Below are positions 9,001 to 15,000 of a stretch of DNA of 60,809 bases, piece by piece; positions within the stretch are counted from its first letter, which is position 1; every line of letters starts with the position of its first letter. The DNA is from an uncultured archaeon (GTDB taxonomy: Archaea > Iainarchaeota > Iainarchaeia > Iainarchaeales > 1-14-0-10-31-34). The stretch spans positions 1 through 60,809 of the forward strand of contig CAYTYC010000005.1 in NCBI GenBank assembly GCA_964442255.1, in the 5' to 3' direction. A program made the position numbers.

Positions 9001-12000
9001 GCGACGGCAATAAAGGAATGCGTGAAAAAAAGAAATTCATGGGTAAAAGAAAAAATGGATTTGCCGCTTGTGGTGGAAGCAAAATTTGAGGGCATTTCAA
9101 AAACAAAAGAAGTGAACGAAAGCCTTTCCGCCCTGCATTTGCTGGACGGAGTGGAAAACGCGAAAAAAAAGAGGCAAATCCGCGCAGGAAAAGGCAAAAA
9201 AAGGGGAAGAAAATACAAGAAAAGGAAATCTTTTTTGGTTGTCACCGGCGGAAAGGCGGAGGTTTTCAGGGCGGCAAGAAACCTGGAGGGAGTGGAAGTC
9301 GTTGAGGCGGGAAACCTGAACGCGGAACTCCTTGCGCCGGGGGCTGAAGCCGGAAGGCTGACGCTTTGGACGGAAAACGCATTGAATGCATTGAAGGGAA
9401 AAGGTGTGAAAGTTGAAAAAAAGTGAAAGAAAGCCCGCAAAAAAGGGAAAGAAAAGAACCGCAAAACACGCAAAAAAGGGGAAAACGGAAAAGGGAAAAG
9501 TGAAGAAAGCGGAGAAAAAAAGGCCCACGGAAAAGGGTTCAAAGGAAAAAGAAAAAACAAAAGAGAAAAGCAAGGCGGAAAAAAAGGAAAAGAAAACGGT
9601 TGACATTGCGGGAAGGCTTAAGGACTACGAAATTCTTTGGCATCCCCTGATATCGGAGAAGGCAATGAACGCGATTGAGGCCGAAAACAAGCTGACATTC
9701 ATTGTAAGCAGGAAGGCCTCAAAAGAAGAGGTAAAAAAGGCGGTGGAAGGGCTTTTTGAAGTTAAGGTTGACTCGGTGAGAGTTTTAAAGGACATGAAGG
9801 GAAGAAAAAAGGCGATGGTGAAAATAAACAGGGAATTCAAGGCAGAAGACATCGCGACCAGATTAGGGGTGATCTGAATGGGAAAAAAATATTATCACCC
9901 ATGTTTTGGTCAACCTTTTATTGAAAAGGTTGCAGGGGTAATCTGAATGGGAAAAAGAATCAAGTCACAGAAAGCGGGAAAAGGAAGCCCGACATTCAAG
10001 GCAACCCACAGGGCAAGGGTTGACCCAAAGTACAGGAATTACTCCGAAGAAGAAAAAAAAGGAATGCTGAAGGGTTCAATCACCGGAATATTGAATGATT
10101 TGGGAAACACTGCAACGCTTATGGAAGCCAGTTTTGATGGGAAAACGGAAACTATTATCGCCGCGGAAGGCGTTTTTGTTGGGCAGGAAATAAAGCAGGG
10201 GGCAAACGCGGACATGGCAATAGGGAACGTTGCCCCCCTGGGAAAGCTGCCTGAAGGGTGCCCTGTGTTCAACATTGAGCGGACGCCCGGAGACGGGGGC
10301 GCGTTTGCGAAGGGCTCCGGATTATACGGGTTGATTGTGACAAAAGACAGGAAAAATGTTTACGTGAAGCTTCCCTCCGGCTCAACCATTCCATTGAACC
10401 ACGAGTGCAGGGCGACAATCGGCTGCGCTGCAGGCGGGGGAAGAACGGAAAAGCCGATGGTGAAGGCGGGAGCGAATTACTTTAAAATGAAGGCTTTAAG
10501 CAGGCCCTATCCAAGCGTAAGGGGGGTTGCGATGAATCCCCCGGACCACCCTTTCGGGGGCTCGCAGCACCATCCCGGAAAATCAAAGAGCACGGCAAGA
10601 ACCGCTCCGCCGGGAAGAAAAGTCGGGGCGATTTCGTCAAAAAGGACCGGAAGGAAAAAAAAGAATTAAAGGCTTTGGCAAAAGGTGAAAGCACATGGTT
10701 GCAAAAAAAGAGTTTACTTTCAGGGGAAAAACAATGGACGAACTCAAAAAAATGAGCATTGAAGAGTTCGCAAAGCTGTGCAACGCGAGGGCAAGGAGAA
10801 GCCTGCAAAGGGGATTCAACAAAACCCTGGAAAAAAACATTGAAGACGCCATAAAAGTTGGAGGGGACGGAAAAAAGCCCAAAATCGTGAGAACCCATTT
10901 AAGGGACACAGTGATAATCCCGAAAATGGTGGGGCTGACTTTCCAGGTTTACAAGGGAAAAGAATGGGAAACCCGCACCATTGAACAGGAAATGCTGGGC
11001 CACTATCTCGGTGAACTGGCGTTGACCAGAAAAAGGCTTGTGCACGGAAAAGCGGGAATAGGCGCAACAAGGAGCAGCACCGCGATAACCGCAAGAGGCT
11101 GAATAAAATGAAAAGAGATTACTCAACCGAAATCATTAACCAGGAGCAAACCGCAAAGGCCTTGCTTGTAAACCAGCCGGCTTCACGGAAATACAGCGTG
11201 GAGATTGCGAGGGAAATACGGGGAAAAAAGGTTTCAAGCGCGGAAAAAAGGCTTCAGAAAATCCTTGAAAAAAAGGAGTTCCTTCCCTTGAGGAGATTCA
11301 ACAAAAAGGTTGCGCACAGAAAAGGAAACGCGAAAAGCAACGTGAAGTCCGGAAGATACCCCCAAAAAACGGTGAAAATTTTCCGGTCACTCCTGGGATT
11401 GGTGAAGGCAAACGCAGACTACAAAGGGCTGGATTCAGAAAACCTTTTGATAGAGCACATAGCGGCCTCGGAAGGCTTCAGCAGGGTTTCATACCAGTCC
11501 CAGGGAAGGATTGCCGGAAAAAGAAGGAAAAGAAAATCAACAAACCTGGAGATAGTCGTGAGGGAATCAAAGTGATTGAACGGAGTTTCGTTAAACAGGG
11601 AATCAAAAGGATTGAACTGGAGAAATACCTGAAAAGCAACCTGGAAAAAGCCGGCTTTACCAGGGCAGAATTAATGAAAACCCCGCTTGTCACAAGGATT
11701 GTGGTTAATGTTTCCAGGCCGGGGCTTGCGATAGGGAAAGGCGGGCAAAACATCAGGAAATTAACCGAAGAAATAGGGCAAAAATTCGGGATAGACAACC
11801 CGCAGCTGGAAATAAAGGAAATAGAGGTCCCGGAACTGGACGCGCAGGCAATGGCGGACAAAATGAAGAATCTGATGGAGCGCGGCTATTCTTGGAGAAG
11901 CGTGGCCTACAGGAGCCTCAGGGACATCACAAGGGCACACGCGCAGGGCGCGGAAATACTGCTTTCCGGCGCGCTTGCGGGAAAAGGCCAGAGAAAAAGA

Positions 12001-15000
12001 AAGCAAAGGATTGCGGAAGGGTACATGAAAAAAGTCGGGGACCAGACAAGGCTCGTGGACCGGGCAAAGGCAGACGCCTACACCAAAATAGGCGCAATCG
12101 GAGTAAAGGTAAGGATAGTCAAGCCGGGGGTCGTGTTCCCGGACAAGGTTGTTGGGAAAAAAATGCTTCCAAAAGAGCCGGAAGAAGAAAAAGAAGCTGA
12201 AGAAGAAGCGGAGGAAAAAGAAAAAAAGGAAGAAACCGGAAAGCCGGCGGAAGAAAAGGCGGAAAAGAAAGGCGGAACCAAAGGAAAGGAAGAAAACGGG
12301 CCCATAAAAAAGGAGGCAAAAGAAGGAAAAGAAAAAACAGGCAAAAAAACGGAAAAAAAGGAAGAGCCAAAAAAAGAAAACGGGAAAGAAAAAAAAGAAA
12401 AAGAATTGAAGGAAAAAAAGCCCGCGGAAAAAGAAGAAGGGAAAAAAACGGAAGAAAAAAAGGAAAGCCGGGGAAAAAAGCTTTTGCAAAAGGTTTTGCG
12501 CGGAAAAAAAGAGGAAAAAAAGTGATTTGAATGGCTTCAAGGGTGGATGAGTTAAGGGAAATGGGAAAAAGCGACCTGGAGGAAAGGCTGCTGGAATTGA
12601 GGGCAGGGCTTTCAAAGGAAAAGGCGCTGATAAGCTCGGGAACAAGGGCGGAAAACCCAGGAAAAATAAAGAAAATGAGGAGAATGATTGCAAGGATTTT
12701 GACGGTTATGCGGGAAAAAGAAACCGGAAAAAACGGGGTGAAAAAAGGAAAATGAACGAAGTTTGCCCGAACTGCGGGCTGCCCAAAAATTTGTGCGTAT
12801 GCGGGGAAATAGCGAAAGAATCGCAGAAAATAAAGATACGCACCGCAAGGAGAAGGTTCGGAAAAATAATCACAACCGTAACGGGGCTGGAAAACGAGGA
12901 AAGGGCGAAAGAGCTCGGAAAAATGCTGAAAAAAAGGCTTGCCTGCGGGGGAACCTTCAAGGAAAAAGAAATAGAGCTGCAGGGAAAGCACTCAAAAAAA
13001 GTCAAGGAAATACTGCTCAAGGAAGGATACAGGGAGGGGCAAATAGATGCTTGAAAGGAAAGGAAAATACCGCATTACGCGCGAAAACCTCGCAAGCCAC
13101 GAGCTCAACGGGCTGAAAACACTGGTTTTAAAATCAGCGGACGCAGGAAGAAAAAGGCAGGGAAAAATCGTGAAAGAAACAAAAAACACTTTTGTGCTGG
13201 AAACCGGGAAAGGAAAAGAAAAAATTTTCCCAAAAAAAGAATGCGAATTCGAGTTTTCCCTGGGAAAAGAAAAGGCAAGGCTGAACGGGAAAAGCCTTTT
13301 GTTCAGGCCCGAAGACCGGGTGAAAGAAAATTACGGAAAAATTGCGGGAGGAAACTTGAATGGCTGAATGCACCGACCCAAAATGCGCTGTCCACGGAAA
13401 AATAAAGGCAAGGGGAAACATTTTCACCGGAAAAGTGGAAAGCGCAAAATCCGACAAAACGGTTTCCGTTAAAAGGTTCCTAACGCACTACATCCCAAAA
13501 TACGAGAGACGCAAAAAAGTCGTTTCAGTAATCAGGGCCCACAACCCGGCATGCATAGGCGCAAAGGAAGGCGAATGGGTGAAGCTGGGGGAAACAAGAA
13601 AAATAAGCAAAACAAAAAGCTTTGTTGTGCTGAAAAAAATCACGAAAGAAGAGGAAAAAAAATGAAGGCAATGAGCGCATTTCCGGTGAAAAGCCTGAGC
13701 CAAAAAAGCAGGTGCGTTTGCGCGGACAACAGCGGGGCAAAAGAACTGGAAATAATAAGCGTGATAGGCTTCAAGACAAGGAAAAGAATGAACCCAAAAG
13801 CGGGGATAGGGGACATGGTTAACGTGGTGGTAAAAAAAGGAAAACCGGACATAAGGAAAAAAGTTGAAAGGGCAGTCATTGTGCGCGTGAAAAAAGAGTA
13901 CAGGAGAGGCGACGGCACAAGGGTTAAATTTGAGGACAACGCGGCGGTTTTAACCGACGACAAAGGCCTCCCCAAAGGCTCGGAAATAAAAGGCGCAATC
14001 GCAAAAGAAGTTGGGGAAAGGTTTCCAAAAATTGCGGGAATCGCTTCCGCAATAGTTTAAAAAGGCGGGAAAAAAAAAATGGAAAGCGGCAAGCCAAAAA
14101 AGCAGAGAAAAAAGGCCTTCACAGGAAAGCTCCACAAAAAAAAGAAATCCCTGCACGCAATGCTGGGAAATGCGCTGAGAAAAGAGTACGGAAAAAAAAG
14201 CGCCATGGTGAGGGCGGAAGACAAGGTCAAGGTTTTGCGCGGAAAATTCAGGGGAAAAGAAGGAAAAGTCACAAAGGCGCTTCACAAGAAAGGCACGGTA
14301 TTCATTGAAAAAATCACGCGAAAAAAATCCGACGGAACAGAGATTCAGGTGCCGATAAAAGCGTCCAACCTTATGGTAACCCAGCTTTTTTTGGACGACG
14401 AAAGAAGGCTTAAAAGGGCCGGAAGGAAAGGGAAAGGAAAAAAGGCTGAAAAAGGAAAAGAGGGGAAGTGAATGGCGAAAAAAGGCGAAAAGAAATCGGA
14501 AAAAAGGCTGGTGACCGCGAAAACAAGCAGGCTGTTGAGGAAAAAAAACAAGTGGGCGGCAAAAACAAGGTGCGGAACGCACAGGAAAAAGGACTCGGTT
14601 TCGCTGGCATATGTTTTAAGGGACATTTTGGGGGCGGCGTCAAACGCAAGGGAAGTGAAAAGAATACTGCATGAAGGCGCGGTGAAAGTGAATGGAAAGG
14701 CAAGAAGGGACAAAAACTTTTCGGTAGGGCTGTTCGACGTTTTAAGCATTGAAAAAGAAAACAAAAACTATCTTGCGGTGTACGACTCCAAAAGAAGGAT
14801 TGAATTGAAGGAAACTGGAAAAGAGCACGCAACATTCAGGCTTGCAAAGGCGGAATTCAAGAGAGCCGCAAAAAAGGGAAAAATACAGGTCACTGCCTCG
14901 GACGGCACAACGGTTTTCCAGGGAAAAGGAAAAATCTCAGGCGGGGACACGATTAAGCTGAAGCTTCCCGACAACAAGGTTCTTGGGGTCTATCCGCTGG

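Follow-up and report, generated by a model that had tools for sequence, protein, structure and literature searches.

Charged low-complexity terminal extensions on ribosomal proteins of an uncultured Iainarchaeota archaeon

Results

The uS3 gene and its C-terminal tail

The window, that is, the whole stretch of 60,809 nucleotides analysed here (contig CAYTYC010000005.1 of assembly GCA_964442255.1), carries a uS3 gene between uL22 and uL29, the position expected for an S10-spc operon, with 6 nt between the uS3 stop and the uL29 start:

11108-11575, uL22, the 5' neighbour of uS3 in the S10-spc operon
11572-12525, + strand, uS3 open reading frame, encoding 317 aa
11572..12171, + strand, folded part of uS3 (residues 1-200; KH and S3 C-terminal domains), delimited by Pfam, AlphaFold and identity to relatives
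12172..12525, + strand, C-terminal K/E-rich tail of uS3 (residues 201-317 and stop codon), delimited by composition, AlphaFold and relatives
12531-12755, uL29, the 3' neighbour of uS3 in the same operon

Pfam matched KH_2 at residues 15-87 (E 1e-13) and then Ribosomal_S3_C at 99-182 (E 5.8e-16), which is the domain order of archaeal/eukaryotic-type uS3 (type-2 KH first, S3 C-terminal second), and among solved structures it best matched uS3 chains of archaea (E 1e-45 to 1e-33). The folded part shares 49-77% identity with relatives; AlphaFold models residues 1-190 at pLDDT 84-98, with the fold ending near residue 195. Residues 201-317 consist of 35% K and 32% E (67% K+E), compared with 9.8% and 8.6% in the proteome (binomial P = 3e-30 for the excess), with 13% G+P and a kappa of 0.10. 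This tail was modelled at pLDDT 45-55 without secondary structure and is thus predicted to be disordered. Between 12171 and 12522, its coding DNA shows tandem repeats of purines that are weak and degenerate.

Terminal extensions on other ribosomal proteins

Our own gene caller returned 1296 proteins, among which 57 ribosomal proteins were identified. Forty-residue windows with at least 50% K+E occurred in 49 of the 1296, while a global residue shuffle yielded such windows in 0.45 proteins on average and in 3 at most. They were found in 18 of the 57 ribosomal proteins versus 31 of the 1,239 others (odds ratio 18, p 1e-13), so that the concentration reported by the genome-wide survey's note (20 of 43) was reproduced (18 of 49). 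This enrichment could also stem from ribosomal-protein termini already being K-rich purine tracts tolerant of additions. K/E-rich ends are likewise present on the unrelated proteins TBP, Topo VI-B, Rrp41, AtpA, GrpE and FtsY.

Low-complexity extensions of at least 45 aa are carried by 13 of the 57 ribosomal proteins; they range from 47 to 124 aa and sum to 1,114 aa, close to the 1,100 extra residues estimated before, or 12.9% of the 8,657 residues in the 50 ribosomal proteins tabulated. Eleven of them have at least 50% K+E (eL43, uL23, uS3, eL32, uS4, eS6, eS24, uL16, eL31, uL1 and eS8), and the other two, on eS19 (K+E 37%) and S27a/eS31 (30%), are of low complexity without being mainly K/E, contrary to their earlier listing. 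As in the class of regions described in PMC6821194, all 13 are terminal and lie beyond the fold ends. Eleven are C-terminal and those of uL23 and eL32 N-terminal, so that not all of them are tails. The survey's note had counted twenty ribosomal proteins with K/E tails of 45-135 aa. The lengths that it gave (uS3 135, eL32 124, uS4 119, uL1 110, eS19 and S27a 98, eS6 92) are exact as residues beyond the Pfam ends, but the count was too high because it included ordinary parts of uL30, uL18, uL10, uS2, eS4, uL6, uS5, uL15 and eL18 that fall outside the Pfam models and have the same length in relatives. The observation of heavily charged tails is therefore real, albeit overstated. Besides uS3, the following extensions were delimited in the window:

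9413..9631, + strand, N-terminal K-rich extension of uL23 (residues 1-73 of 154; Pfam L23 from residue 74)
16914..17285, + strand, N-terminal K-rich extension of eL32 (residues 1-124 of 222; Pfam L32e covers 125-222)
24276..24554, + strand, C-terminal K/E-rich tail of uS4 (residues 176-267; S4 domain at 103-148; K 32%, E 28%)
37730..38008, + strand, C-terminal K/E/G-rich tail of eS6 (residues 120-211; Pfam S6e covers 1-119; K 32%, E 30%, G 14%, kappa 0.03)
40814..40981, + strand, C-terminal K/E-rich tail of eS24 (residues 110-164; Pfam S24e at 19-109; K 29%, E 33%)
41306..41602, + strand, C-terminal low-complexity tail of eS31/S27a (residues 68-165; Pfam S27a at 26-67; E 18%, A 15%, K 11%, P 11%, also Q-rich)

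The fraction of charged residues is 0.60-0.68 in the 11 K/E-rich extensions (0.36 in eS31, 0.45 in eS19), and aromatic residues make up 0-3% of these 11. Net charge per residue spans -0.05 to +0.30, with most tails near neutral (-0.05 to +0.16, E about equal to K), and the charges are well mixed in all 13 (kappa 0.03-0.16). A G or P occurs every 10-20 residues in the uS3, eS6, uL1, uL16 and eS24 tails. At the DNA level, the extensions are encoded by tracts of purine-only codons (AAR/GAR) and degenerate short tandem repeats, the latter inside the uS3, uL23, eL32, uS4, eS6 and eS24 extensions.

Reading-frame evidence for translation

The sequences indicate that the extensions are translated and maintained at the protein termini. 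The uS3 tails of 29 genomes (2,882 codons) have no in-frame stop as against 66 in the +1 and 191 in the +2 frame, a contrast that follows in part from the definition of a tail, which ends at the first in-frame stop; the uS3 tail of this genome, taken by itself, would stay open by chance with a probability of 0.07. The corresponding counts (in-frame/+1/+2) are 0/55/98 for eL32 N-extensions (1,512 codons) and 0/35/46 for uL23 N-extensions (778 codons). The genes are tightly spaced, and both extended starts are preceded by a Shine-Dalgarno-like GGTG: uL23 begins with TTG, 8 nt downstream of GGTG, its next in-extension start is at codon 30, and no alternative start codon was found near the start of the L23 domain; eL32 begins with ATG 15 nt past the uL6 stop, with GGTGG upstream.

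A predicted helix in eL31

Charged single alpha-helices (ER/K motif) are long runs of E and K/R free of helix breakers that form one isolated helix. The uS3 tail does not belong to this type (longest G/P-free run 19 residues, no helix in the AlphaFold model), and the one candidate for it is the eL31 extension, which is K/E-rich, with few G or P and a single predicted helix. AlphaFold places residues 83-148 of eL31 in one 66-residue helix (pLDDT 77-93 by 10-residue block), and mean pLDDT was 77.8 to 91.9 in five eL31 models, although AlphaFold may overrate its confidence in helices of K/E-rich sequence. Across 29 eL31 tails the median G+P content is 3.6%, and 15 of them end in a semi-conserved basic motif similar to KEKxAEKxxIKR. 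The earlier description of the tails as disordered would thus hold for uS3 but, according to these models, not for eL31.

Persistence and turnover among relatives

A uS3 tail of at least 45 aa is present at 74 of 76 complete loci of named Iainarchaeota species (median 98 aa, genomic GC 29-60%), an eL31 tail of at least 45 aa in 27 of 28 relatives and a uL16 tail of 55-86 aa, a narrow length distribution, in 28 of 28. These three extensions are thus kept in nearly all relatives sampled, while identity of the folded parts goes down to 40-50%. Among relatives the uS3 and uL16 tails show no sequence conservation, and tails were unalignable apart from the eL31 end motif; as far as sequence comparison tells, they recur across genera without positional conservation, as in the PMC6821194 class.

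Other extensions are far more variable, with tails on uL1, eS6, uL23 and eL32 ranging from none to 165 aa. That of uL1, 106 aa long here, has a median length of 8 aa among 28 relatives, and that of eS6, counted after residue 125, measures 86 aa versus 2-93 aa (median 37) in 29. Extensions of at least 46 aa on uL23 were seen in 11 of 20 relatives and of at least 45 aa on eL32 in 15 of 20, and uS4 has a comparable added length in 7 of the 18 measured. Other lineages carry tails absent here, namely at the C-terminus of uL3 (53-99 aa in 5 of 19) and on uL24 (41-69 aa in 6 of 20), uL4 (52-56 aa in two relatives) and uL29 (93 aa in one). Carriers and lengths vary even between genera of one family, and a sister family of the same class (two genomes) is almost without extensions (uS3 21 and 38 aa, uL23 2-3, eL32 10-13). 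The tails are therefore widespread in the phylum's main order, yet fluid, and the coat claimed for the whole lineage is not a uniform set. Over the 76 species, K and E fall with genomic GC (rho -0.73) while A rises (+0.78), so that the extensions are indeed charged and well mixed, as the term polyampholyte implies, but their K/E richness is not a conserved property.

Much of this turnover is what would be seen if the extensions were functionless, near-neutral run-on, in which K/E codons arise by slippage at purine-rich termini, exposed termini tolerate them and the small populations of small-genome, host-dependent archaea fail to purge them. The variation between genera, the lineage-specific carriers, the dependence of composition on GC, the tandem-repeat traces in the tail DNA and the similar ends on unrelated proteins all fit such a process, and since the sister family is almost free of extensions, tolerance fits as well as benefit. 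On the other hand, run-on does not readily account for the retention of the uS3, uL16 and eL31 extensions over such divergence, the narrow length range in uL16, the lack of in-frame stops next to frequent off-frame ones, or the end motif and low G+P of eL31, and the cell pays a real cost for about 13% of added residues in its most abundant proteins. We therefore consider this explanation possible but doubtful.

Compensation, environment and a eukaryotic parallel

Alternatively, the extensions could bind rRNA and offset a reduction of the rRNA or a loss of ribosomal proteins, in the manner of mitochondrial ribosomes. The N-extensions of uL23 (K 40%, E 14%) and eL32 (K 40%, E 16%) are indeed net basic (+0.29 and +0.30 per residue), and Pfam model searches of this 93.8%-complete genome found no eL39, eL40 or eL37, while all four archaeal controls were matched. 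However, neither rRNA is reduced, as the 23S rRNA matches model positions 1-2987 with 2,986 nt and the 16S rRNA all 1,478 model positions with 1,675 nt, and most tails, being near neutral, are poorly suited to RNA binding, with that of uS3 also predicted to be unstructured. Compensation is thus very unlikely.

Even less probable is that the K/E richness reflects a thermophile- or environment-driven adaptation of the proteome that includes the tails. The proteome does have indices that we take to be thermophile-like ((E+K)/(Q+H) of 4.7, charged-minus-polar 10.5%), and they remain at 4.6 and 9.9% after omission of the 49 proteins with K/E windows. Yet the tails of relatives occur across GC 29-60% with shifting composition, many named tailed records are titled as groundwater, lake or marine samples, and adaptation of folded proteins leaves added unstructured termini unexplained.

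The earlier proposal was that the tails are a prokaryotic counterpart of eukaryotic nucleolar and ribosomal K/E-rich disordered regions; on this reading they would act in condensate-like ribosome assembly. Some extension sites are shared with eukaryotes (uS3 C-terminus, uL23 N-terminus, eS6 C-terminus). Eukaryotic nucleolar regions of the KKE/D type have segregated basic and acidic blocks and are carried by core proteins of box C/D or H/ACA snoRNPs (Nop56/58, dyskerin), and polymer theory holds that well-mixed charges disfavour self-association. Although the composition resembles that of lysine-rich nucleolar disordered regions (PMC11528048), we give this proposal the least credence of all: segregated blocks were not found in any of the 13 extensions, aromatics are nearly absent, the Nop5 homologue (Nop domain at 37-261 of 270 residues) has no K/E tail, and matches to eukaryotic uS3 reach no further than query residues ~185-232, most of them stopping at 201-214, with no similarity in the tail beyond the fold.

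Comparison with known ribosomal-protein tails

The solved uS3 of Methanosarcina acetivorans (318 aa; chain sequence shared by PDB 9ZNF, 9ZNG, 9ZNI and 9O17) has near-equal total length, with a ~110-aa tail at the same terminus and after the same fold end, but this tail is rich in A, P and E instead of K and E, with EKPAEKPAEK and APAPEAPAP among its repeats. Unlike here, eL31 (89 aa) and uL16 (173 aa) of that species are without extension, and its eL32, 161 aa long in 9nri/9nta/9o17/9ou7 and 129 aa long in 9znf/9zng/9zni, is extended little if at all. Solved archaeal eL32 chains measure 125-130 aa, apart from one set of 240-241 aa in the 50S entries 1JJ2 and 1S72, whose N-terminal extension of ~100 residues shares its site with the 124-aa extension here; we take these entries to be from Haloarcula marismortui and the extension to be acidic, as in halophile proteins. 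None of the solved chains matched by uS3, eL31, uL16 or eL32 came from an Iainarchaeota ribosome.

According to PMC6821194 (Ntountoumi et al. [quoted passage not shown] The carriers of this genome overlap with these (uS3, eS24, FtsY, DnaK and GrpE); across 102 archaeal proteomes, the survey counted 117 such regions in ribosomal proteins (A 27%, E 33%, K 10%), about one each, compared with about 13 here (K 31%, E 24%, A 8%). McGrath et al. (bioRxiv 10.64898/2026.06.18.733196) describe disordered, unresolved terminal segments, aromatic-poor and enriched in K/E/A, as a coat of the ribosome; the concept is common to the extensions here, whereas that dataset covers bacteria, eukaryotes and mitochondria with archaeal entries taken out, and its bacterial fragments are far shorter. 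The extensions are thus an unusually heavy case of a tail type already described in other prokaryotes, and both the tails outlined in PMC6821194 and M. acetivorans uS3 precede the claim of a first prokaryotic ribosome so decorated.

Discussion

The account that we favour, at a little better than an even chance for the whole of it, is that uS3 is an ordinary gene with a ~115-residue low-complexity appendix, one of about 13 hydrophilic and mostly disordered terminal extensions on ribosomal proteins that have a generic role. The extensions would lengthen and shorten through slippage or duplication in purine tracts, and selection may hold a hydrophilic appendix at much the same size on certain proteins (uS3, uL16 and eL31) rather than a given sequence, so that composition drifts with genomic GC. 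The termini concerned presumably lie on the ribosome surface, in keeping with ribosome structures and with PMC6821194. The eL31 extension, if it is a stiff charged helix ending in a semi-conserved basic motif, probably makes a more specific contact. Most of the others would be disordered, giving the solvent side of the ribosome a hydrated brush. The role of this brush may be a generic one, namely to maintain the solubility and spacing of ribosomes and to limit unspecific sticking.

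The uS3 gene and its C-terminal tail

The gene that carries the longest of the tails considered here has the following position:

11572–12525, + strand: uS3 open reading frame, 317 codons, GTG start

It belongs to an S10-spc cluster of the usual archaeal make-up (uL3, uL4, uL23, uL2, uS19, uL22, uS3, uL29, SUI1, RNase P p29, uS17, uL14, uL24, eS4, uL5, onward), shares 4 nt with the end of uL22, and its stop codon is separated from uL29 by 6 nt. Pfam places the KH_2 domain at residues 15–87 and Ribosomal_S3_C at 99–182. Residues 201–317 consist of 35% lysine and 32% glutamate, compared with a proteome-wide background of 9.8% and 8.6%, respectively (binomial P = 3e-30). 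In an AlphaFold prediction based on 48 homologues, residues 1–190 reached a pLDDT of 84–98, while residues 200–317 scored 45–55 and were devoid of secondary structure. We ruled out an assembly or annotation artefact, as the reading frame runs on into the tails, little space separates the operon's genes and independent genomes show such tails as well; the uS3 tail and a set of about 13 such extensions are real.

Terminal extensions across the ribosomal proteins

To place this tail in its genomic context, 1,296 genes were called on the 1.28-Mb, 51-contig genome with a simple codon-score caller, which picks longest-ORF starts, so that N-termini may come out overlong (e.g. in uL14). A K/E segment, meaning any 40 residues with K+E of at least 50%, was present in 49 of the 1,296 proteins, against an average of 0.45 expected after a global residue shuffle and 21.5 after shuffling within proteins. 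The Pfam scan covered 325 of the 1,296 proteins, comprising all 49 carriers and every protein of up to 360 aa with K+R of at least 19%, and was supplemented by 13 open reading frames of the window and by nine more families across the whole genome. This yielded 57 ribosomal proteins, a set that leaves out eL33, eL14, eL13, eL38, eL41 and other small families. The Pfam models for eL39, eL40 and eL37 matched each of the four archaeal control genomes and gave no match here, at a genome completeness of 93.8%. K/E segments occurred in 18 of the 57 ribosomal proteins versus 31 of the 1,239 others (odds ratio 18, p 1e-13).

The genome-wide survey's note had counted twenty ribosomal proteins with K/E tails of 45–135 aa. 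Measured past the Pfam ends, its individual lengths were reproduced exactly, and eleven extensions of at least 45 aa with K+E of at least 50% were retained. Those of eS19 and eS31 are not K/E-dominated, and the rest of the post-Pfam "tails" are normal protein parts, equally long in relatives.

Extensions of ribosomal proteins, in residues beyond the Pfam end (K+E at least 50% except in the last line)
uS3: 135 aa
eL32: 124 aa, N-terminal
uS4: 119 aa
uL1: 110 aa
eS6: 92 aa
eL31: 77 aa
uL23: 73 aa, N-terminal
uL16: 69 aa
eL43: 62 aa
eS24: 55 aa
eS8: 47 aa
eS19 and eS31: 98 aa each, low-complexity, K+E just 30–37%

With stricter fold ends, the 13 extensions together comprise 1,114 aa, which corresponds to 12.9% of the 8,657 residues in 50 tabulated ribosomal proteins. 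The uL10 (P0) gene (contig C28:1433–2518; locus L048:963–2048) is broken by ambiguous bases (N) in the assembly, giving 34 X in the translation, because of which the C-terminal hinge of uL10 and a 53-aa K/E open reading frame (C28:2656–2817) are not properly readable.

K/E-rich termini extend beyond the ribosome. They are found at the C-terminus of TBP (C10:19277–20032; residues 197–251), at termini of Topo VI-B (C14:8339–10081; 511–580) and Rrp41 (C1:36899–37756; 236–285), and at the N-termini of FtsY (C24:14763–16106; 17–165) and GrpE (window 48400–48999; 2–74). The 864-aa catalytic subunit of the A-type ATPase (C1:7143–9737; L001:7133–9727) likewise has a K/E-rich end at 813–864 and carries an intein (Intein_splicing, 288–646).

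Reading frames and DNA of the extensions

Across 29 uS3 tails (2,882 codons), there were 0 stops in frame versus 66 in the +1 and 191 in the +2 frame, a contrast that is in part a matter of definition, since the first in-frame stop marks where a tail ends. The N-terminal extensions gave 0 in-frame versus 55 and 98 off-frame stops for eL32 (1,512 codons, 15 relatives) and 0 versus 35 and 46 for uL23 (778 codons). For the single uS3 tail of the present genome, the chance of an open frame is 0.07; frames open across many genomes nevertheless argue for maintenance. The eL32 ATG start lies 15 nt past the uL6 stop with GGTGG upstream, and the uL23 TTG start has GGTG 8 nt upstream. That the uL23 extension is a non-coding spacer was ruled out, since no start codon lies by the domain start and the sole inner start is codon 30. 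For eL32 a spacer is unlikely given the open frame in relatives, with a GTG at codon 103 as a possible alternative start.

Tandem Repeats Finder detected many weak, degenerate purine repeats (periods 3–26, 63–100% matches) within the uS3, uL23, eL32, uS4, eS6 and eS24 extensions. The + strand of the window is heavily purine-loaded throughout (AT skew up to +0.58, GC skew up to +0.31). The tails may have grown as AAR/GAR tracts slipped or were duplicated, which would fit both the repeats and the purine loading. Every scanned gene of the window is on the + strand. The stretch just upstream of uL3, at 7042–7230 of the window, contains a 24-nt repeat and tandem repeats with periods of 9, 18 and 36 (unit CTTCACAAA and variants, up to 93% matches), which do not resemble the purine repeats within the tails.

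Predicted disorder in the tails and a predicted eL31 helix

The fraction of charged residues was 0.60–0.68 in the eleven K/E-rich extensions, 0.36 in eS31 and 0.45 in eS19. The extensions have a net charge of -0.05 to +0.30 per residue, a kappa of 0.03–0.16 and 0–3% aromatics, and most contain a glycine or proline every 10–20 residues. In the polymer theory of Das and Pappu, well-mixed strong polyampholytes are said to be expanded coils.

The extension of eL31 departs from this pattern and includes a 40-residue stretch free of glycine and proline. Its gene lies outside the window:

C24:12932–13381 (L044:11311–11760): eL31 gene

The median G+P content was 3.6% in 29 eL31 tails versus 6.3% for uS3 and 12% for uL16. 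For residues 83–148 of eL31, a K/E-rich run of 66 residues, AlphaFold predicted a single helix (29 homologues; block pLDDT 77–93), and a semi-conserved motif resembling KEKxAEKxxIKR stands at the end of 15 of the 29 tails. Given this predicted helix, the ribosomal coat proposed in the survey's note would combine disordered tails with at least one candidate for a charged single helix.

Distribution of the extensions in relatives

We compared the extensions of uS3, uL23, eL32, uS4, uL1, eS6, eL31 and uL16 with those of relatives, leaving out eL43, eS8, eS19, eS24 and eS31. uS3 was matched in all 41 related genomes, and PF00189 in 117 of 121 sampled genomes of the phylum. At 30 loci, two of them ended by contig ends, uS3 runs 33–163 aa past the residue-200 position; these tails have a K+E of 0.29–0.74 and no alignable positions. 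A scan of species representatives gave 80 uS3 loci, mostly titled Candidatus Iainarchaeum or Diapherotrites, with a few under other labels, and including Ca. Iainarchaeum andersonii and archaeon GW2011_AR10; all 80 are records of this phylum or so labelled. Among the 76 genes that are complete, median tail length is 98 aa (range 26–163); 74 have a tail of at least 45 aa, but K+E reaches 50% in only 37. Its composition correlates with GC content (Spearman -0.73 for K and +0.78 for A, the species not being independent).

In 28 of 28 relatives, uL16 continues for 55–86 aa past residue 185, with a conserved segment over the first ~13 of these residues, and the eL31 extension spans 31–91 aa, with at least 45 aa in 27 of 28. 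In 20-kb S10-spc clusters read from 20 genomes, an N-terminal extension was present on uL23 in 11 (at least 46 aa) and on eL32 in 15 (at least 45 aa). Extra length on uS4 comparable to that of the present genome was seen in 7 of 18. The uL1 tail measures 106 aa here versus a median of 8 aa in 28 relatives (at least 45 aa in 6), and the eS6 tail 86 aa versus a median of 37 aa in 29. Other lineages have extensions that the present genome lacks, namely on uL3 (C-terminal, 53–99 aa, 5/19), uL24 (41–69 aa, 6/20), uL4 (52–56 aa, 2 genomes) and uL29 (93 aa, 1 genome). A sister family of the same class (2 genomes) has nearly no extensions, with 21 and 38 aa on uS3, 2–3 on uL23 and 10–13 on eL32. By these lengths, the extensions of uS3, uL16 and eL31 are a stable trait of the order, and those of the other proteins appear and disappear. 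The set of tails that had been described as a lineage-wide coat thus varies within the lineage; apart from these three proteins the tails are fluid, and the sister family is near-bare.

High tail turnover, a composition that tracks GC and a tail-poor sister family are what nearly neutral run-on sequence, the main rival to maintenance by selection, would leave behind, and K/E-rich termini of the same sort on TBP, Topo VI-B, Rrp41, AtpA, GrpE and FtsY fit it as well. It accounts poorly, however, for the persistence of the uS3, uL16 and eL31 extensions within a narrow length range, for the open reading frames of the extensions and for the eL31 end motif.

Comparison with known ribosomes

Prokaryotic ribosomal proteins often carry low-complexity regions, mostly C-terminal, at the surface and chiefly of A, E and K, as stated by Ntountoumi et al. 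2019 (PMC6821194). The same paper gives at least 10 carrier genera each for archaeal S3, S24e, L10 and L12, and lists FtsY, DnaK, prefoldin and the thermosome as further carriers. Low-complexity tails being thus already described there, the suggested novelty of a tailed prokaryotic ribosome falls away; the eukaryote-like reading of the tails is without support.

Outgroup lengths were taken from solved structures and PMC6821194. Solved archaeal uS3 chains measure 186–229 aa, with one exception of 318 aa, in entries given by their depositors as the M. acetivorans 70S ribosome (PMC13454478); its tail is A/P/E-rich, whereas the one described here is K/E-rich. Solved archaeal eL31 and uL16 chains measure 89–95 and 164–182 aa, respectively, and no solved archaeal ribosome shows anything comparable to the eL31 and uL16 extensions. 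Solved eL32 chains have 125–130 aa, 161 aa, and 240–241 aa in 1JJ2 and 1S72, which we take to be from Haloarcula marismortui. Outside subscription journals and supplements, we found no published description of K/E tails on Iainarchaeota/Diapherotrites ribosomal proteins.

Other observations in the genome

The 16S rRNA gene (C17:1481–3155, outside the window) gives a match of 1,675 nt against a 1,478-position model, and the ~200 nt extra could be an insertion or intron; the adjoining 23S match is of ordinary length. A 299-aa open reading frame on C24 (L044:8176–9075) combines an RNase P Rpr2/Rpp21 domain (17–92) with a dephospho-CoA kinase domain (106–281); should this be one gene, the fusion would be unusual. 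Toxin-antitoxin-type genes are many for a 1.28-Mb genome and spread over several contigs: HicA (four), AbiEii (two), Fic (five), HEPN/nucleotidyltransferase pairs, and VapB-type, ParE and MazE-type antitoxins.

Possible roles and meaning

The extensions are a heavy, order-wide but fluid case of a known type of feature. Our best guess is a role as a generic surface brush, and the predicted eL31 helix may have a more specific one. Thermoadaptation is unlikely because carriers span a wide GC range and many named records are titled groundwater, lake or marine. Compensation for a reduced rRNA is not supported, as the 23S and 16S matches (2,986 and 1,675 nt) cover the full models.

We also entertain, as a tentative and rather doubtful proposal, that selection in the main Iainarchaeota order keeps a protein brush by which ribosomal-protein mass is raised by about 13%. 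To this brush uS3, uL16 and others would contribute disordered polyampholyte tails as a spacer or anti-sticking layer, and eL31 a charged helical arm of roughly 10 nm that ends in a conserved basic motif and would dock, near the tunnel exit, a partner or a distant rRNA site. An archaeon whose rRNA is full-length would then have arrived at a protein-decorated ribosome by another route than eukaryotes and mitochondria.

For now, the present case adds no new principle and lies at the quantitative extreme of something already described. The tails inflate protein lengths, and homology searches, marker-gene alignments and DPANN annotation can be led astray by their low-complexity matches. If selection maintains them, these archaea would offer a natural test case for the effects of charged unstructured or helical appendages on a ribosome (solubility, spacing, docking), and would show a prokaryotic gain of ribosomal-protein extensions of the kind usually discussed for eukaryotes and organelles.
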